DNA of 30,471 nucleotides from a virus, in IMG/VR virus record IMGVR_UViG_3300038405_000273; one strand, written 5' to 3'. Made by a program: the position numbers and the translations under genes. Below, one piece after another: positions 3 to 16,801 of this stretch (positions within the stretch are counted from its first letter, which is position 1; every line of letters starts with the position of its first letter). The notes under the pieces were generated by a model that saw nothing but the letters and a program-made list of their open reading frames with translations, was not told the DNA's origin and did no database searches.

Positions 3-1661
3 GTGCGGGCACGCGGTGGATTGACGATTGGAGGGCTGCGCGCGCAGAGCGTAGAGGCCGCGGATGGGGACCTGATCGCGATCTGGGATGATGACGACGA
101 GAACGCGCCAACACGCCTCGAACATCAGATCAGCGAACTCAAGGACGACTTCGGGACGATCCTGTCTACGCTGCTGCTTGTCTGCACATGCGGGTTTTCG
201 TGTCCGAGTGAAGTGCGCCCCGGTGGGTGGGAACTGACGCTAGTCGCACGCCGCGGAGGATTACCGCCGTACCGCGATCTTGTCTATGGAGAGGACACAG
301 CTCTGATGGAGGACATCCGGGCGAGGCATGACGTGCGCACGCTGGATACGTTGGGGCTCTATCGCTACCACTTTCACGGCGGCAACATCTCGAACGTTGA
401 GCACTGGCAATACCTGTTCGAGCGCGCCGGGAACCATCACGACGTGTGGCGCTGTGCAGCGGATCGTGGCCTCGTCGAGCCAGAAGCCGACGAGACGTTC
501 GACGACATAGCGAAGCGTATTCGCAGCACCAAGAGCACTGTTGCGCTCATGCGTGTTACGACGGCTGTCGACCGCTTTCGGGCAAAACACGCTGCTAACG
601 GTCCGCTCGGTGACGAGCGCGCACGCCTTGCTGTACTCCTGGCGACTGCCTTCGCGGAAGCAGGTGAAGCGCAAGCCGCACAGGTGTGGGCTCTTCGTGC
701 CTTGCAGTACGGACCGCGCGCCGATGCGTTTTCACTGCTCGGAGAGATTGCGATCCTTTTTGACGAGTGGGAACAAGCTGAACGTTGGTACGAGAGTGCG
801 TGCGGAGTCACGCCGAGGCGCGAGTCCGATCACTTCGTGCGCCCCCCACACGAGCGCTATGCAGCCCTTCGACAATATGCGCGACCGGTACGTACGGTAC
901 GCCGCCGCGTTCAGCCCAACAACGAGGGGCACGTTCTCGCAGTCATGACGTGTGCGGGGCGCGAGAAGTCCCTTGAGCGCACGCTGCTATCCTTGGAGCG
1001 CGCGGGTCTTGGGCGGTGGAAGGGCGCGATGATTCTAGTCGCTGACGGACCTGTCGAGTGGCGTGCCCATTTTGATTGGTGGCGCCTCCTGCGAAGTGAC
1101 AGCATCGCTGGGCAAGCGAAGACGATGCTGCGTGTCTTCGAAGCGGCGGCAGAACACCCGGCGCTGACCGCGCTCACGCTGATCGAGGACGACGTCGTGC
1201 TCGCGCGCAACGCGCTCGACTACATCGCCACCACGAATATCGATGACGATCTCGCGCTCATCTCGTGGTTCACAACCCAAAACTATCGCGCGCCGTTTTC
1301 ACCGTTTTTGCGGATCACGAGCGCCGCTACGCACCAGCCGTCGAACGCAGGGGTTACATTCCCGGCCGCGACCGTACACGCCGTGCTGGACAGATACTTC
1401 CCAACGAATCAAGCGATCACACTGCCGGCGGATACAGTACGCGCCGTGCTTGATTCGCGGCGTCTGCACGAATGGCCTACGAAGCACGGAGCCGACACGA
1501 TTTTCTGGGAGGTCCCTGGCAAGCCGTGCGCTGTCCACTACCCAAACCTCGTGCAGCATGTAGGGGGGCTAGAGTCGCTCGTCGGGAACGAAGGCGCGCG
1601 CGTCTCCCCTACTTTTCTCGGAGAAGACGCGGATGCTTTCGCTCTTCTCCCGCCGATTTGA
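3..1661 (+). CDS. Multidomain glycosyltransferase, 5'-truncated (GT2-like N-part, TPR-like helices, second GT-A domain)
   Basis: The N-terminal 'AADGDLIAIWDDDD' is a typical GT2 DxD strand. The middle is TPR-like (ADAFSLLGEIAILFDEWEQAERWYESA). The C-terminal part has GT-A-like motifs (VMTCAGRE, TLIEDDVVL, PNLVQHVG). The ORF is open at the window edge. Confidence 0.75.
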   Translation: MRARGGLTIGGLRAQSVEAADGDLIAIWDDDDENAPTRLEHQISELKDDFGTILSTLLLVCTCGFSCPSEVRPGGWELTLVARRGGLPPYRDLVYGEDTALMEDIRARHDVRTLDTLGLYRYHFHGGNISNVEHWQYLFERAGNHHDVWRCAADRGLVEPEADETFDDIAKRIRSTKSTVALMRVTTAVDRFRAKHAANGPLGDERARLAVLLATAFAEAGEAQAAQVWALRALQYGPRADAFSLLGEIAILFDEWEQAERWYESACGVTPRRESDHFVRPPHERYAALRQYARPVRTVRRRVQPNNEGHVLAVMTCAGREKSLERTLLSLERAGLGRWKGAMILVADGPVEWRAHFDWWRLLRSDSIAGQAKTMLRVFEAAAEHPALTALTLIEDDVVLARNALDYIATTNIDDDLALISWFTTQNYRAPFSPFLRITSAATHQPSNAGVTFPAATVHAVLDRYFPTNQAITLPADTVRAVLDSRRLHEWPTKHGADTIFWEVPGKPCAVHYPNLVQHVGGLESLVGNEGARVSPTFLGEDADAFALLPPI

Positions 1662-1687
1662 CAGGCCCACCCCGCGACGGCGATCCT
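1658..1687 (+). promoter_or_regulatory. Putative promoter TTGACA-N18-GATCCT
   Basis: Perfect -35 preceded by GAT, 18-nt spacer, weak -10. Geometry matches the eight other promoters of this class in the window. Confidence 0.45.
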
Positions 1688-1694
1688 GTTCTCC

Positions 1695-1836
1695 ACCAAC
1701 ATACCGGCGGATCTGAAGGCGCGGCTACGACACGGATGGTCCGTGGCGGGCAGTGTTTCTCGTTTCGCCGCCTCTGCTGCGGTCCGGCCGCAGCCGAGCT
1801 TCGGGGTCCGGCCCCGATGGAGGAGGTACAGAGAAC
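1695..1836 (+). ncRNA. Structured 5' leader with three hairpins
   Basis: Hairpins CACGGA-TGG-TCCGTG, GCTGCGG-TCCGG-CCGCAGC (1776-1794) and TCGGGG-TCCGG-CCCCGA (1801-1817) lie directly before the RBS GGAGGAGG. Confidence 0.45.
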
Positions 1837-5821: not shown

Positions 5822-5851
5822 AGAGTACAGGTCGGCTGCCGGAAGCGTCAA
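5822..5851 (-). promoter_or_regulatory. Leaderless promoter TTGACG-N18-TACTCT, 7 nt to GTG(5814)
   Basis: Sigma70-like hexamers; mirror image of the promoter at 5871. Confidence 0.65.
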
Positions 5852-5870: not shown

Positions 5871-5900
5871 TTGACGAGGGAGCGCTCCGACGGGCATTCT
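5871..5900 (+). promoter_or_regulatory. Promoter TTGACG-N18-CATTCT, 7 nt to GTG(5908)
   Basis: Divergent partner of 5822-5851. Inverted repeat CGTCAAATC(5846-5854)/GATTTGACG(5868-5876). Confidence 0.6.
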
Positions 5901-6683: not shown

Positions 6684-6869
6684 GTGTTGCAGCCAGGTTC
6701 GGCGCAGCCAACAGGTCTCCAGGTCCTCGGCACGTTCGTGTGGCGCATCGTCACGCGCCTCGTCCAGAACCGCTCGTATGCCGACGTGATCATTTCGATC
6801 AAAGACGGGAAGGTCCAATTCGTGCGGGTGCACCAGACGTTTTTGCCCGACCAGGTCCCGCGGGAGTAG
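6684..6869 (+). CDS. Small protein, weakly DUF2292/YezD-like
   Basis: Helix followed by the hairpin pattern 'YADVIISIKDGKVQFV'; fills an operon gap. Confidence 0.45.
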   Translation: MLQPGSAQPTGLQVLGTFVWRIVTRLVQNRSYADVIISIKDGKVQFVRVHQTFLPDQVPRE

Positions 6870-9201: not shown

Positions 9202-9231
9202 TTGACAGCGCCCCAAACCACGATGCACACT
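9202..9231 (+). promoter_or_regulatory. Promoter TTGACA-N18-CACACT, predicted start near 9239
   Basis: Perfect -35 with an 18-nt spacer. The GACATAG RNA motif begins 7 nt after the -10. Confidence 0.65.
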
Positions 9232-9238
9232 GGCCCTT

Positions 9239-9338
9239 GACATAGGCGAGGTGCTGTATCGGCCTCGTATTCTCGGCGAACCCGAATAACGGGGCGCTCC
9301 GACGGAAGAAACCGTTGGGCGCCCCTTTTTGCGTTTTT
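9239..9338 (+). ncRNA. Structured leader/attenuator RNA, copy 1 (GACAUAG-P1-P2-AAC-terminator)
   Basis: GACATAG; P1 GCGAGG/CCTCGT; P2 ATTC..GG-CGAA-CC..GAAT; AAC; terminator hairpin; T5. Confidence 0.65.
9291..9330 (+). terminator. Intrinsic terminator within the 5' leader
   Basis: GGGGCGC..CCGACGG-AAGAAA-CCGTTGG-GCGCCCC followed by TTTTTGCGTTTTT. Confidence 0.75.
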
Positions 9339-9364
9339 ACCCTCCAACCAAAAGGCGATCGACG

Positions 9365-10042
9365 ATGTACATCCCAACCGGACGTGCTCCTGGCTCGACG
9401 CCGCAGCTCGTGATGCGCACCGGGATCATCCGTCCGATGAACCCGGCGAACGCGCGCCGAGACATCTCGACGTCACACGTCGATTCGATGACGCGCATGC
9501 CCGTCGACGAGCCCCCGCCGGCCCTCCCCGCGCCGGTGCCACCCGCGCTCCAGCCGACACCGGCGCCTGCCGCCCCGCCGCCAGCGCCGCTCATCCCGGC
9601 CGCGCCCGGACCGGTCACGACGGCTGTCGCCCAAGCCGCGACCGCGACGCCACCGGCGCCGCTGCCCGTGGCGGCCACAACCGACCTGCCGCACTCGCCG
9701 TCGGGACAGCACCACTGGCACCGCGAGCACCGCCGGATGCATCCGCTCATGGCCGACATCAAGCGGCTGCATCCGCACGCGCGGCTGCACGGTGCGGACG
9801 ACGTGTTGCTCGGTGAGTGGCGCGGGCGCCCGCTCGCCAAGTTCGAGATCGCGTCGTCGCCGCCTGCCGGAGGTGCAGCGCACGCCGTCGAGGCGCTTCG
9901 GCGTGCGGCGCACCTCCTCCGCTCGACCGGACTCGAAGTGCTACCGCCCGAGCTGGTCGGCGGCCCGCTCGCTGCGCTTATGCGGGGCGGCGCGGTTCAA
10001 CTCCATTTCCAGAACGGGGTCGTCATGAGGACGGCCCTCTAA
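9365..10042 (+). CDS. Pro-rich putative virion/core protein
   Basis: ATG at 9365 after AAAAGG; first gene of the operon leading to the candidate capsid gene. Confidence 0.65.
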   Translation: MYIPTGRAPGSTPQLVMRTGIIRPMNPANARRDISTSHVDSMTRMPVDEPPPALPAPVPPALQPTPAPAAPPPAPLIPAAPGPVTTAVAQAATATPPAPLPVAATTDLPHSPSGQHHWHREHRRMHPLMADIKRLHPHARLHGADDVLLGEWRGRPLAKFEIASSPPAGGAAHAVEALRRAAHLLRSTGLEVLPPELVGGPLAALMRGGAVQLHFQNGVVMRTAL

Positions 10043-10071
10043 TCGACCCCAGTCCAAACCAAGGAGACATC

Positions 10072-10191
10072 ATGCGCAAGCACTGCAAGTTCGGGTTCCG
10101 AAAGGGGACCAACAAATGCCGCAAGCACCCGAAGCGGCGCAAGCGGCACAGCTTCCTGGGTCGCGCTCGTCGTCGGCGTCGTCGGCGCTAA
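10072..10191 (+). CDS. 39-aa protamine-like protein, candidate DNA-condensing core protein
   Basis: AAGGAG RBS. Sequence MRKHCKFGFRKGTNKCRKHPKRRKRHSFLGRARRRRRRR has 21 Arg/Lys in 39 residues. Confidence 0.75.
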   Translation: MRKHCKFGFRKGTNKCRKHPKRRKRHSFLGRARRRRRRR

Positions 10192-10249
10192 GCGCTGAGC
10201 CATCCAAACCCGAACCTTCAACACCTCACCCGGGAAGGAAACACACCAA

Positions 10250-10777
10250 ATGGCTCGGCATCGATTCCGCGGCTTCGGCAGTGCCGACGACCGCGCACAC
10301 ATCGCAGGGCCGCTCATCGGCGGCGGCGCCACACAGATCGGCATCATGCTGGCGCACCTGCACGCGAAGAAGAACCCGGCGGCGCTTCGGCACGCCGGCA
10401 TCCACGGCGCCATCCTCGGCGCCCTTGTCAGCGGCGGGCTGGCGATGACCCAGAAGTACCGGGCCATCGGCATCTCGGCGCTCGTCACGGTCGGCGTGAT
10501 GGCGCTGCCGCGCATCCTGGAGGGCTTCATGGGCCTCGGTCATCGCGACGAGACCATGAAGGGGTACGAACTCGGCATCATCACGCCCGAGCAGTACCAG
10601 TCCCTCTCGGACAGCGAGCCGGCGATTCAGCTGCTCGATGCGGGCGGCGGATCGACGGGCGTGCTCGGCACGCAGGTGGCAGAAGAGGTTCATCCTCTGG
10701 CCGGCGCGGGCGGGGCGGGGGACTACGTCGAGATGATGGGTTCCGGCTTCGGGACCAACTTCCTCGCCGCGCAGTAA
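10250..10777 (+). CDS. Multi-pass membrane protein, candidate major virion membrane protein
   Basis: GAAGGA RBS, strong codon bias, up to three hydrophobic Gly-rich helices and an acidic tail; immediately upstream of the candidate capsid gene. Confidence 0.7.
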   Translation: MARHRFRGFGSADDRAHIAGPLIGGGATQIGIMLAHLHAKKNPAALRHAGIHGAILGALVSGGLAMTQKYRAIGISALVTVGVMALPRILEGFMGLGHRDETMKGYELGIITPEQYQSLSDSEPAIQLLDAGGGSTGVLGTQVAEEVHPLAGAGGAGDYVEMMGSGFGTNFLAAQ

Positions 10778-10791
10778 GCGGCAAAACGCTC

Positions 10792-10893
10792 GACATAGCG
10801 GCGGCCCGAGGAGCTGCCGAATTCAGGACGACCTGAATAACAGGCGCCCATCGCGGAAGGACACTCCTTCTCGCGGCGGGCGCCTTTTTGTTT
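10792..10893 (+). ncRNA. Structured leader/attenuator RNA, copy 2
   Basis: GACATAG; P1 CGGCGGC/GCTGCCG; P2 ATTCAGG-ACGA-CCTGAAT; AAC; terminator hairpin; T-tract. Confidence 0.65.
10842..10893 (+). terminator. Intrinsic terminator upstream of the candidate capsid gene
   Basis: AGGCGCCC..CGCG-GAAGGA-CAC-TCCTTC..CGCG..GGGCGCCT followed by TTTTGTTT. Confidence 0.75.
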
Positions 10894-11009
10894 CACGGCA
10901 CCTCGCGCTTCATCGGGACTGCGTAGGCGTGAGGGCCGAAAAAAGAACGCGGTCCCGACGACGCTGGGACCAAACCGGCGCAGCCGACCCCAGCAAGGAG
11001 AACAGCACC

Positions 11010-11798
11010 ATGGCCAATCCAGGCACACTCACCGTCCGCGTTCGCGGCGTTCCGTTCCCGATCGAGTTCGCGGACTGGACGCACGATCGCCTCTACCACA
11101 CCGTCGAGTTCGAAGGCACGGACTCGCAGCCGATCCAGACGTTCATCGGCGCGGCCGGCTCGCCGATCCCCGGCGGTCAGCGCGTGCTGACGGCGGCGGA
11201 CACCAACATCCCGCGCTCGGGCGACACCGGCCTCCAGGAGGGCTGGGAGATGCTGATCTACAGCATCCAGATCTACGTCACCCGGGAGATGGCGCGGAAC
11301 AACGCGCAGCAGTTCTTCCAGCTGCAGGACCAGACCAACGTGGGCGGCGCGACGCAGTTCTCGCGCAACGTCCACCTCGGCGGCTACGACCCGGCCAACA
11401 CGGCGGGTGGCGTGCTCTTCGACTTCCTCCGGAAGGCGTACCACAAGTTCCAGGTCAACCAGAAGGTCCAGTCGGAAGGCACCGTCGACAAGTACCCGCA
11501 AGGGTCGGGTCCGTCGGTGTTCGGCACCACGACCTCGCTGGAGGTCGCGAACAACGGCGTGCCGTCGCCGCGTGACCAGAGCGCGTTCGTTCTGCCGATC
11601 TGGCTGCGGCCGAACATCGCCTACGTGGGCATCCTCGCCCCGCAGGCGGCGCTCGGCATCGGCGGCGCCAACGCGGCGGCGGGCCCGCCCTTCCCCACCG
11701 TCGAGGGCTACTTCGACTGGTCGGGCATCCCGGCGACGAACATGGGGTTCGACGTCAAGGAGACGCTGGAGGGGCTTCTCAAGCGACCGGTCGTCTGA
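11010..11798 (+). CDS. Candidate major capsid protein (262 aa, jelly-roll-like)
   Basis: AAGGAG RBS and near-exclusive G/C third positions. Beta-rich, with 'RLYHTV..F....LTAADTNIPRSG..GL..GWEMLIYSIQI' and C-terminal 'VKETLEGLLKRPVV'. Followed by a terminator. The assignment is from pattern and context, not from a search. Confidence 0.6.
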   Translation: MANPGTLTVRVRGVPFPIEFADWTHDRLYHTVEFEGTDSQPIQTFIGAAGSPIPGGQRVLTAADTNIPRSGDTGLQEGWEMLIYSIQIYVTREMARNNAQQFFQLQDQTNVGGATQFSRNVHLGGYDPANTAGGVLFDFLRKAYHKFQVNQKVQSEGTVDKYPQGSGPSVFGTTTSLEVANNGVPSPRDQSAFVLPIWLRPNIAYVGILAPQAALGIGGANAAAGPPFPTVEGYFDWSGIPATNMGFDVKETLEGLLKRPVV

Positions 11799-12276: not shown

Positions 12277-12540
12277 CTATCGCATCCGCTGAATGATCTC
12301 GTCGGGGCACAAGTCGATGCCTCCCGGCCATTCAACCGTTCCGTGAGCTGCACGCACGCGTGCAAAAAACTTCGGGTCGCGCAAGCGTTTTAGGACTCCT
12401 CGCGTCGTACCTACGAAACGAGAAAAATCTCGCGAGATTTTCGTGCCGTCTGTCAGATCGAGTTCCAAGCGATATCCAGCTAGCGGGCGAACTGCGCGGA
12501 CTCTAAGCAAGCGGTCTGATTTTTTTGAGAGCTTTCCCAT
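12277..12540 (-). CDS. DUF2442-family protein (putative antitoxin)
   Basis: 'VRAVRPLAGYRLELDLTDG....D', 'LRDPKFFARV' and 'GTVEWPGGIDLCPD' are characteristic. GGAGG upstream of the ATG at 12540. Confidence 0.85.
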   Translation of the reverse strand: MGKLSKKSDRLLRVRAVRPLAGYRLELDLTDGTKISRDFSRFVGTTRGVLKRLRDPKFFARVRAAHGTVEWPGGIDLCPDEIIQRMR

Positions 12541-12763
12541 CTCTTGCGAGCCTCCAGTCGTCGAGTAGCTCGTCACGACGCAACGTGATCCAGGCAGCGA
12601 CACGATACATGTCATCGGCTGGTAGGCGCCCATGTACAAGCGCTGCCGTTCGGATTTCGAAGATCGCTTCTCTCCCACCTTTAACGGCGTGAATGTGTGG
12701 CGGCGCGTGATCTTGCCAGTACATGTAGATCGTGATGCCAAGGAAACGGCTGATCGCAGGCAA
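12503..12763 (-). CDS. DUF4160-family protein (putative toxin)
   Basis: 'MPAISRFLGITIYMYWQDHAPPHIHA...G.LP...V..W...R.ELL..W....I.PL', paired with DUF2442. Confidence 0.9.
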   Translation of the reverse strand: MPAISRFLGITIYMYWQDHAPPHIHAVKGGREAIFEIRTAALVHGRLPADDMYRVAAWITLRRDELLDDWRLARDGKALKKIRPLA

Positions 12764-12976: not shown

Positions 12977-15900
12977 CTACGTATCCCCGTCGAGCGCTTC
13001 GTCTAGTTCGTCTTCGAACAGCTCGTCTTCGACTTTCTCGCGATCGACTTGCGCCTCGATCGCTTTCACCACGGGCTCCGTAGCCGCAACAGATGGCGCT
13101 TCGGGCCCTTCTTCCAAGGGTGGCGTCATCCACCCGCGTGCCATCCACTTGACGACGAACAGGTTGTTCCGCCTTGGTAGAGGCGGCGTCATCCATGTCG
13201 GCGAGAATGGCGAGGGCAGAAGTGGCGGGGGCGGTACAGGCGGCGGGAACGGCGCGAGTGCCCAGCCTTCATCAGGCTGCCGAGGAACGCGATAGCGGCC
13301 GCGTTCAGGATCGGTGCTCTCGTCCCACGTGCTTTCGGACGCCGCAAACGGCTCGATACACCACGGTTCGGCAGGCTGTCGCGGCGGCGCGTAGGTGCTG
13401 CGCTCCGGGTTTTCGACTTCTTCGAAAGGCGCGGCGGAAACCGCTACGGGCGGTTGCGCCCACGGCTCGATCTCACGGTGCTTGCGCTGCGGTTGCGCTT
13501 GCTCCGTGCTGCTTGGCTGCAGAGGAAGGACGACGGGAGCAAGCGCCCACGACTCGGACGGCTGGCGCTGTACGTAAGACGCGCGCTCCGGCTGAGGCGC
13601 CGTCCACGGGGCGCCGCTTACTGCGGCCGGTGGCTGCGTCCACAGCTCGTCAGGTTGCCGCGGAGGGCGATAGCTGGAAGCGTCGGCTTGCGCAAGCGCC
13701 CACGGTGCCGCCGGCAAGGCGGCGGGATTTGCGCCCCAGACCTCATCGGGCTGTCGCGGCGGCTTATACGATGAGCGCTCTGGGTTCTCGACCTCCTCCC
13801 ACGGGGAGGCCGAAACCTCAATCGGCGGCTGACTCCAAGGCTCGACTTCCCTGTGAACGCGTGGCGGCGTTCCGCGCTCTGTGCTTGTCGTGGGCGGGGC
13901 GAGTGCGATCGGCGGTTGACTCCAAGGCTCCGCGATCGGAGGCGGCTTGCTGTACGCGTTACGTTCGGGCTGGGGTGCTGCCCACGGTGCCGCCGAAAGC
14001 TCTGCAGGTAGCTGCGCCCATGGCTCGATCTCGTGGTGAACGCGCGGCGGCGTTCCTCTTTCTGTACTGATCGCTGGCGGCGTGAGCGAGATCGGACGCC
14101 CAGACCATGGCTCGTCAATCGGACGCGGCTTTGTGTAGCCAGTACGCTCCGGCTGGGGCGCGGTCCAGAGCGCGGGTGAGCCTGTAACAGGTGGCTGACT
14201 CCACGGTTCAATCTCTTTGTGGACACGCGACGGTGTTCCGCGTTCCGTGCTAGTCGTAGGCGGTGTAAGTGCAACAGGCGGCTGACTCCACAGCTCATCA
14301 GGCTGCCGCGGCGGCTTGTAGGACGAGCGCTCTGGATTTTCGACTTCTTCGAAAGGCGCACCGGAGACTTCGATTGGCGCGAGCGCCCACGGCTCTGCGA
14401 TCGCAGCGGGCTTTACGTACGCAACACGCTCGGGTGACGGCGCCGACCACGGAGCTGGCGAGAGTTCGACGGGGGGCTGCGCCCACGCCTCGATCTCTCT
14501 GTGTGTCCGCGCAGGTGCGCCGCGCTCGGCGCTAAGCGTGGGCGGAGTGAGTGCGACAGGCGGCGCAGACCACGGCTCGTCGATCGGCCGCGGTGGGTGA
14601 TAACCGCTGCGCTCTGGATTCTCGACCTCCTCCCACGGCGCTGCAGAGATCTCGACGGGCGGCTGTGCCCACAGCTCATCGATCGGTCTAGGCTTTCCAT
14701 AGGTCGAACGTTCAGGCTGATAAGCCGTCCACGGCGCTGCGCTCGTCGTGACAGGCGGTTGTGCCCACGGCTCGATCTCGCGATGCTTGCGCTGCGGTTG
14801 TGCGACTTCGCTGCTAGTCGTCGGGAGGGTGAGACGAACTGGCGGCGCCGTCCAGCTTTCGTCCGGTTGGCGAGGAGACCGATACGTAGGCCGTTCGGGA
14901 TTCTCGACCTCCTTCCAAGTAGCAGCGCTCTCCGCGACAGGAGGCTGCGACCACAGCTCATCAAGCTGGCGCGGCTTCGCATATGGACTGCGTTCTGCTG
15001 ATGAGATGGCCCAGGGCGAAGCAGAAACGTCGATAGGAGGCTGTGCCCAAGGCTCCTCTTCTTTGAACTTACGCGGCGGTGTTCCGCGCTCGATGCTGGT
15101 AGTCGGCGGGGCGAGCGCGATTGGCGGCTGTACCCACGGCTCGTCGATCGGTCGGGGCTTCGCATACGTGTTGCGCTCTGGATTCTCGCCCTCTTCCCAA
15201 GGTGCAGCGCTTTCTTCAACAGGAGGTTGCGCCCATGGCTCGTCGATCGGGCGCGGCTTGCCGTATGTACTGCGCTCGGGCGACGGTGCCGCCCACGGAC
15301 TCGCGCTGGTTTCTACAGGAGGTTGTGACCACGGCTCTTCCTCCTTGAACTTGCGCGGTGGCGCCCCTCGCTCGGTGCTAACAGTCGGAGGTGTGAGTGC
15401 CAGTGGCGGGGCTAGCCAGGCTTCGACTTCTTTGTGAACCCGCGGTGGCGCCGAGCGCTCTGCACTAGTCGTGGGCGGCGCAAGCGCGATTGGTGGCAGC
15501 CCCCAGGGCTCATCCGGCTGCCGCGGTTTCGTGTATCCCGAGCGCTCTGGTTGAGGCGCGGTCCATGGAGCCGACGAGACCGTTATTGCTGGCTGGGCCC
15601 ACCCTTCGATCTCCTTGTGGACACGAGGAGGTGTTCCGCGCTCTGTGCTTACCGTTGGAGGCGCAAGAGCGATTGGAGGGGAGGCCCACGGCTCAGGGAT
15701 CGATAGCGCCCGTACGTAGGTCGAGCGCTCGGGGTTCTCGACTTCCTCCCACGGGGAGGCGCTTGTCTCTACTGGTGGCTGACTCCAAGGCTCCGCGATT
15801 GGAGGCGGCTTTGTATACGATGACCGTTCTGGTTGCGGCGTGAACGGCGCTGCAGACCCAGCGATCGGCGGCTGACTCCACAGCTCATCGGGCTGGCGCG

Positions 15901-16801
15901 GCGGCTTGTAGGACGAGCGCTCCGGTTGCGGAGACGCCCACGGCGCAGCCGCCACCTGTACGGGTGGGCCGAACCACGGCTCGATCTCTTTATGGACACG
16001 CTGCGGTGCCGAGCGCTCTGTGCTTGTAGTCGGGAGCGCGACACGGACGGGCGGCTGGCTCCAAGGTTCGTCGATGCGCGGTGACTTCGGTGGTATTGCG
16101 CCGGCAGGTGTTGTGTCGAACCACGGATTGAGTGGTGGAACGAATACAGGCCACGACCAGGGCTCGTCGATCGGGCGAGGCTTCGCGTAGCTGCTGCGTT
16201 CCGGCTGCGGCGCTGCCCACGGTACCGCTGATATCTCGACGGGCGGCTGGCTCCAAGGCTCGCCTTCTCTATGAACCCGCGGCGACGTTCCTCGCTCTGT
16301 GCTTGTCGTGGGCGGAGCGAGTGCGATCGGAGGCTGCGTCCACGGCTCAATCTCACGATGCAGGCGTTGTGCTGCAGACCGGTCGCTACTGACCGTTGGC
16401 GGCACCAGCGCTAGCGGCGGCTGACTCCAAGGCTCCGGTATTGGTGGCGGTTTCGCGTACGTGCTGCGTTCGGGCTGAGGCGTCCACACCGCCGATCCCG
16501 CAAGCGGCGGCAAGCTCCAAGGTTCGTCAACGCGAGGAGCGCGGCTTGGCGTTCCGCGCTCTGTGCTTGTCGTGGGCGGGGCGAGTGCAAGTGGCGCAAA
16601 CCGCCAGTCTTCGATCGGCTGCGGAACGCGCGGCTGGACGGGACGATCAGGTGCAGCGCCAATCGCAAGCGCGACGACTACTGGCGCGAGCGCCCAGGCC
16701 GAGTTGGTGTCGGCAGCCCGCGGCGCCTGTGTGCGCGGCGTGGCGTTGAGCCAGCCCTTATCGGACTGGAGGTTCTGGCCTATTTGTTGGACGAGAGGCA
16801 C
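12977..16801 (-). CDS. 1274-aa Pro/Glu/Trp-rich tandem repeat protein
   Basis: Uninterrupted ORF of about 38 units of 29-33 aa ending E-x-W-x-x-P-P, with synonymous divergence between units and an acidic C-terminus. Confidence 0.85.
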   Translation of the reverse strand: MPLVQQIGQNLQSDKGWLNATPRTQAPRAADTNSAWALAPVVVALAIGAAPDRPVQPRVPQPIEDWRFAPLALAPPTTSTERGTPSRAPRVDEPWSLPPLAGSAVWTPQPERSTYAKPPPIPEPWSQPPLALVPPTVSSDRSAAQRLHREIEPWTQPPIALAPPTTSTERGTSPRVHREGEPWSQPPVEISAVPWAAPQPERSSYAKPRPIDEPWSWPVFVPPLNPWFDTTPAGAIPPKSPRIDEPWSQPPVRVALPTTSTERSAPQRVHKEIEPWFGPPVQVAAAPWASPQPERSSYKPPRQPDELWSQPPIAGSAAPFTPQPERSSYTKPPPIAEPWSQPPVETSASPWEEVENPERSTYVRALSIPEPWASPPIALAPPTVSTERGTPPRVHKEIEGWAQPAITVSSAPWTAPQPERSGYTKPRQPDEPWGLPPIALAPPTTSAERSAPPRVHKEVEAWLAPPLALTPPTVSTERGAPPRKFKEEEPWSQPPVETSASPWAAPSPERSTYGKPRPIDEPWAQPPVEESAAPWEEGENPERNTYAKPRPIDEPWVQPPIALAPPTTSIERGTPPRKFKEEEPWAQPPIDVSASPWAISSAERSPYAKPRQLDELWSQPPVAESAATWKEVENPERPTYRSPRQPDESWTAPPVRLTLPTTSSEVAQPQRKHREIEPWAQPPVTTSAAPWTAYQPERSTYGKPRPIDELWAQPPVEISAAPWEEVENPERSGYHPPRPIDEPWSAPPVALTPPTLSAERGAPARTHREIEAWAQPPVELSPAPWSAPSPERVAYVKPAAIAEPWALAPIEVSGAPFEEVENPERSSYKPPRQPDELWSQPPVALTPPTTSTERGTPSRVHKEIEPWSQPPVTGSPALWTAPQPERTGYTKPRPIDEPWSGRPISLTPPAISTERGTPPRVHHEIEPWAQLPAELSAAPWAAPQPERNAYSKPPPIAEPWSQPPIALAPPTTSTERGTPPRVHREVEPWSQPPIEVSASPWEEVENPERSSYKPPRQPDEVWGANPAALPAAPWALAQADASSYRPPRQPDELWTQPPAAVSGAPWTAPQPERASYVQRQPSESWALAPVVLPLQPSSTEQAQPQRKHREIEPWAQPPVAVSAAPFEEVENPERSTYAPPRQPAEPWCIEPFAASESTWDESTDPERGRYRVPRQPDEGWALAPFPPPVPPPPLLPSPFSPTWMTPPLPRRNNLFVVKWMARGWMTPPLEEGPEAPSVAATEPVVKAIEAQVDREKVEDELFEDELDEALDGDT
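13255..16700 (-). repeat. Degenerate coding tandem repeat (87-99 nt units, three variants)
   Basis: Recurring GGCGGCTGACTCCAAGGCTC-like and CGCTCTGTGCTTGTCGTGGGCGG-like blocks on the + strand. Confidence 0.85.

Follow-up and report, generated by a model that had tools for sequence, protein, structure and literature searches.

The 30,471-nucleotide (nt) stretch analysed here (IMG/VR record IMGVR_UViG_3300038405_000273; hereafter the window) carries on its plus strand two leader segments, copy 1 (9239-9338) and copy 2 (10792-10893), in which a small hairpin overlaps an intrinsic terminator ahead of virion genes. The operon concerned, for core, membrane and capsid proteins, has a sigma70-type promoter (9202..9231, plus strand; TTGACA, 18 nt, CACACT). 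Copy 1 is followed, on the same strand, by genes for a Pro/His-rich protein of 225 amino acids (9365..10042; first in the operon and absent from the distant clade), an Arg/Lys-rich peptide of 39 amino acids that is probably a core protein (10072..10191), and a conserved, Gly-rich hydrophobic protein of 175 amino acids, probably a membrane protein (10250..10777). Copy 2 lies between this last gene and that of the probable major capsid protein (11010..11798, plus strand), predicted to adopt a single jelly roll; the capsid protein of SPV1 is its best solved match, a middling one (Z 7.9, root-mean-square deviation 3.7, 142 aligned).

The initial annotation of this DNA described the two segments as sharing one layout (the motif GACATAG, hairpins P1 and P2, and a long terminator hairpin), and this layout is present in both. 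The motif stands at the predicted +1 of copy 1 (9239..9245) and is followed by P1 (9246..9268), which is variable and missing from distant members of the family; in copy 2 the motif and P1 (10792..10819) have no upstream promoter. When the window was scored with a matrix derived from the promoters of related loci, the 9202 promoter came first, and copy 1 begins 8 nt after its -10 box, as had been predicted. The expectation that no promoter lies downstream of copy 2 also held: nothing promoter-like is found from 10042 to the capsid start (best 4.9 bits, versus 13-25 for clear sites), so that, short of a promoter for another sigma class, transcription of the capsid gene has to pass both terminators. 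These terminators (9291..9331, -29.4 kcal/mol; 10842..10889, -34.6 kcal/mol; both plus strand) have the GC-rich stem, the U tract (T5 in each) and the covariation of genuine intrinsic terminators. A standard promoter/terminator scan missed both sites, owing to its rules. The two segments fold far better than expected (z = -3.2 and -7.1; none of 200 shuffles folds as well), and a search of Rfam 15 at gathering and E-value thresholds returned nothing but generic terminator-like matches, none of which reached a gathering score, in agreement with the view that this is not a known family.

The conserved unit, however, is not the one initially described. P2 reaches only -3.6 kcal/mol in copy 1 and forms in less than half of the copies known from related viruses, while GACATAG, P1 and P2, which had been taken as defining parts, are dispensable and missing in many members. 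GACATAG alone has 39 one-mismatch matches versus 43 expected; ACATAR occurs in 27 of 50 copies, promoter-less ones included, and is thus not universal, and TTGAC is found upstream of 38 of the 50. What is conserved is a hairpin of 22-24 nt, overlooked at first, that is built from the loop and 3' arm of P2 together with the 5' base of the terminator (GGCGCY). Its consensus, RGC-NA-CCNG-ANNAA-CNGG-C-GCY, comprises a 3-bp lower stem, a bulged A (or a small internal loop), a 4-bp upper stem and an A-rich loop. This loop begins with A in 45 of 47 distinct cores and counts 5 nt in 35 of them, with A at its fourth position in 32 of these 35. In copy 1 the hairpin (9275..9298, plus strand; -10.7 kcal/mol) is a variant with a 3-nt/2-nt internal loop; in copy 2 (10827..10848, plus strand; about -6 to -8 kcal/mol) the lower stem contains one A-C mismatch. 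The last 7-8 nt of the hairpin are also the 5' strand of the terminator (8 nt in copy 1, 7 nt in copy 2), and the two folds are therefore mutually exclusive. Cut at the 3' end of the hairpin, the transcript prefers the hairpin in 50 of 50 copies; in the complete leader it is the far more stable terminator that is preferred.

A pattern search recovered homologous copies in related viruses in which both folds covary. The first two pairs of the upper stem prove nothing, since they were fixed by the search pattern. The third pair, which was free of it, is paired in 45 of 47 cores (19.5 in shuffles), as CG (12), AU (12), UA (10), GC (6) or UG (5); these are counts of sequences, not of independent events, but the presence of four Watson-Crick pair types across clades is hard to explain by descent alone. 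In a plain alignment, 85% of the cells of the hairpin, which we call the antiterminator, are paired, compared with 75% after shuffling and at most 47% when the register is slid, with 45 double changes. The terminator is paired in 95%, and neither fold is equalled by any shuffle or slid register. Where shared bases have changed, both partners follow, that in the hairpin and that in the terminator, and four cores carry extra bases on both sides of the stem together. It is thus shown computationally that the leaders of these virion operons contain two mutually exclusive folds, both under selection. The proposal of a conserved structured RNA stands on these 50 covarying copies, with the overlapping hairpin replacing P1 and P2 as the conserved unit.

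The 50 copies (47 distinct cores) come from related, approximately 100-kb bacterial viruses with a single-jelly-roll capsid protein. All are intergenic, sense to virion operons and always in their leaders, and a complete genome has one to three of them. Three sites recur: one belongs to the core/membrane/capsid operon, the second to a collagen-like spike operon and the third to another structural gene. The leader is kept family-wide behind an orthologous promoter, and the related locus L017 resembles the window in having a copy ahead of its capsid gene. In the window the orthologous third site (1658..1775, plus strand) retains the promoter and ACATAC, but the antiterminator and the base of the terminator have both decayed and the RNA model finds no match; the upper hairpin occurs in the window nowhere beyond the two copies. 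The model built from the 50 copies recovered the expected site in five of six held-out loci, and weakly in the sixth. Matches from a loose-pattern search of IMG/VR were mostly due to chance, a single locus (L196) being real and new. In 150 Acidobacteriota genomes (34 candidates scored in each) the model gave weak matches only, none above 32 bits; all three of those inspected were chance-like. No claim is based on the unpublished genome G033.

We consider it probable, on these comparisons, that each copy is a transcription attenuator gating virion genes. By default, RNA polymerase would stop after about 90-100 nt. The small hairpin would form first in the nascent RNA, and a trans factor binding its bulged A, upper stem and loop would hold it and so allow read-through; the capsid gene would need two such events, which may sharpen the timing or the response. 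The idea of a conditional-termination switch, already present in the initial annotation, gains from the overlapping, covarying antiterminator and its 50 copies in virion-operon leaders. Among the options then listed, a protein-bound site is the best; a put-like RNA or a riboswitch finds no support.

This logic is that of RAT/LicT and ANTAR antitermination, yet the size and loop of the hairpin fit neither family. In the RAT/LicT system a small protein stabilises a weak hairpin that overlaps the 5' strand of the terminator by 6-10 nt (PMC5393181). The overlap of 7-8 nt seen here falls inside this range; however, a RAT (BglG-SacY proteins) has 29-33 nt and two loops, versus 22-24 nt and one bulge or internal loop here, and our element differs in sequence, has a conserved apical loop and gates virion genes. 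ANTAR regulons comprise several attenuators, with a mini-hairpin that overlaps the terminator and carries A at loop position 1 (PMC3369931). All three features are shared, but ANTAR sites have two hairpins with 6-nt loops (A1/G4), whereas here there is a single hairpin, mostly with a 5-nt loop and A at position 4, P1 being dispensable and its loop not conserved. In five viral genomes, no CAT_RBD protein was present and no ANTAR-domain protein scored over the cut-off. In phage lambda, a promoter-proximal terminator blocks the late operon (pR'-tR', relieved by Q), and N/boxB exemplifies phage-specific recognition of an A-rich loop. A late operon behind a promoter-proximal terminator is likewise found here, but each terminator has a site of its own, with which it overlaps, so that control looks local and not processive; no boxA was seen, and no Q or N36 match exceeded the cut-off in the same five genomes. 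Finally, HK022 put acts alone on the zinc-binding domain of the polymerase, at distant terminators (PMC9378689); two hairpins near +1 recall it in some copies, but this two-stem form is not conserved, P1 or P2 missing in many.

Copies within one genome resemble each other more in the variable part of the hairpin (0.78) than do copies at the same site in different genomes (0.59; 0 of 10000 permutations), and the flanking stems carry no such signal, which points to a sequence-specific ligand. Likeness within a virus is what one would expect if the sites of each virus must fit its own factor. As this factor we lean, if only slightly, towards a DUF2292-like alpha-beta-beta protein of 61 amino acids (6684..6869, plus strand), a candidate antiterminator. 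Its gene is read from the plus-strand promoter at 5871, which has no attenuator and also serves a protease and a small membrane protein; this promoter forms a divergent pair with one at 5851 on the minus strand. The protein would accumulate from this unattenuated promoter, probably work as a small beta-sheet dimer, and clamp the nascent hairpin so that polymerase passes. The gene is found in 8 of 9 genomes, in distant members and in every held-out locus covering the region. The protein has the alpha-beta-beta order and the V-I-x-x-DG-x-I pattern of DUF2292 (YezD/OscA), with an Atlas score of 0.80 and a TM of 0.52 against this family; fold searches with this small protein were uninformative (best Z 4.5).

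The same hairpin stands beside bacterial members of DUF2292. For seven of eight DUF2292 genes of Acidobacteriota, the upper hairpin comes 100-400 nt after the point where the domain match begins, with 9 matches at these loci versus none in 47 kb elsewhere; it often abuts a GGAG ribosome-binding site, and no Rfam family covers these positions. The genes concerned (L203-L210) lie upstream of genes for transport or porin-like proteins, and one hairpin or two overlap the ribosome-binding site or are close to it; at L205 there is a c-di-AMP riboswitch upstream as well. A fully compensated copy was also found, by pattern scan, in G160, an unrelated and more AT-rich HK97-type tailed phage. It lies 29 nt after a gene of 65 codons whose product also shows the strand-turn-strand pattern, and the genes for terminase large subunit, portal and capsid follow the copy directly.

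Several observations weigh against this assignment or against parts of the argument. One genome that is 88% complete (G008) has the hairpin without a DUF2292-like gene, and four short contigs with distant homologues have no hairpin. Viral proteins match the Pfam model of DUF2292 (PF10055) weakly: the window protein gives no match, and a single one of 15 homologues reaches E 0.002. The G160 gene has no Pfam match and only E 0.1 on the profile made for this analysis, where it still ranks first of 1608 segments. Beyond shared ancestry, the DUF2292-like sequence does not follow hairpin type (partial rho 0.13, 240/2000). A ranking of proteins by co-variation with the hairpin placed it second of 29 with 9 genomes, a signal that was gone with 20; the genes adjoining copy A scored best there, which linkage would predict. 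The bacterial hairpin pattern was adjusted after the loci had been viewed, all loci are from one phylum and one match lies inside a gene, so that this result, striking as its ratio is, counts as a lead and not as a blind test. About a quarter of the cores lack the top pair of the stem, and duplication followed by fast decay of the flanks could also produce the likeness within genomes.

The same attenuator could respond to another viral or host protein, for example the Arg-rich peptide, bound in the manner of N/boxB or Tat, and within the attenuator reading we hold this to be a minority possibility, unlikely but deserving attention. A bulge, four base pairs and an A-rich loop suit Arg-rich motifs (PMC9539567), an Arg-rich peptide is encoded in 38 of 38 loci examined, and DUF2292 and hairpin type do not co-vary; but near-identical peptides accompany different hairpin types (L006 versus L009), and in bacteria it is DUF2292 genes that the hairpin follows. 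Nor did a search for co-variation between Arg peptide and hairpin reveal any, and ANTAR, CAT_RBD, NusG, Q and N36 are all below cut-off in the five viral genomes. We think it improbable that the leaders chiefly yield small RNAs of about 95 nt (protein sponges, decoys or packaged RNAs), the late genes depending on leaky read-through. A promoter with a terminator will indeed give short RNAs, and ACATAR at +1 is retained even in promoter-less copies; however, the conserved hairpin is impossible in the terminated RNA, which leaves conservation of the alternative fold unexplained, the copies are always 5' of virion operons, and past two strong terminators the capsid gene would receive too little transcription.

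A metabolite riboswitch, or a factor-free put-like RNA acting on polymerase, appears to us more improbable still. Tandem hairpins near +1 would suit it, and the P2 loop of copy 2 reads ACGA, as in guanidine-II riboswitches; but this loop is present in few copies, the conserved core is only about 22 nt, without need of P1 or P2, and the sequence of the hairpin is virus-specific. Moreover, the terminators on which put acts are separate from it (PMC9378689). Pairing of the loop with an antisense or trans-acting RNA that would set the fold is, in our opinion, very improbable: virus-specific loops would suit base pairing, but the pairs of the stem covary freely and no consistent 11-nt complement exists elsewhere in six genomes.

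The relatives of this virus are contigs of 90-150 kb that also encode lytic transglycosylases, for which reason we take their hosts to be bacteria; one is placed in an Acidobacteriota bin. The family appears as tailless bacterial viruses of about 100 kb with an SPV1-like single-jelly-roll capsid, a transglutaminase-like protease, Arg-rich peptides with LxG motifs and collagen spikes; a literature search for a paper describing such a family found none. Around copy 2, a small 4-bp hairpin with an A-rich loop (10777-10790) separates it from the stop of the membrane gene and was not seen in relatives. The capsid 5' leader contains an H-type pseudoknot (10901-10958; a 10-bp stem, with the loop pairing 12 nt downstream), possibly an mRNA-stabilising or processing element, whose layout recurs in many relatives from differing sequences (19 of 24 loci versus 33 of 120 shuffles in a crude scan, part of the matches being spurious). 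Immediately 5' of the capsid ribosome-binding site, a hairpin that contains a 7x1 internal loop (10966-10990), highly conserved and present in nearly all relatives, may be a translational operator or enhancer. Elsewhere, the minus strand encodes a 1274-residue protein of repeats of about 31 residues (12977-16801), without match in Pfam or PHROG and not seen in related genomes, and, in a patch of lower GC (12277-12724), two small genes that we take to resemble a DUF4160/DUF2442 toxin-antitoxin-type pair. A large paralogous family of small proteins with a WARGW-like C-terminal motif (28761-29685; 33256-37431 in G001) has at least nine copies in some genomes.

Judged against Rfam 15 alone (PMC10690425 offers another 10,006 candidate RNAs), the hairpin is a new RNA family that belongs to a familiar mode of control and probably has a new protein partner. 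Both the hairpin and this role of DUF2292 seem previously undescribed, and the papers open to search mention no RNA-binding role for DUF2292 (YezD/OscA). We regard as evenly balanced the broader proposal that DUF2292/YezD proteins are minimal RNA-binding regulators reading a bulged-A hairpin, a pairing that would serve late-gene antitermination in tailless and tailed phages and would act, in bacteria, within the leaders of operons and frequently at the ribosome-binding site. The family has a member in Bacillus subtilis, which makes this directly testable, and the virus-specific variants of the hairpin could provide very small orthogonal transcription switches. Known late-gene antitermination in phages mostly modifies the polymerase (Q, N, put); if our proposal is true, viruses with two unrelated capsid types would use a local, RAT-like switch instead, and the common DUF2292 family, so far without an assigned function, would gain both a function and a binding site.
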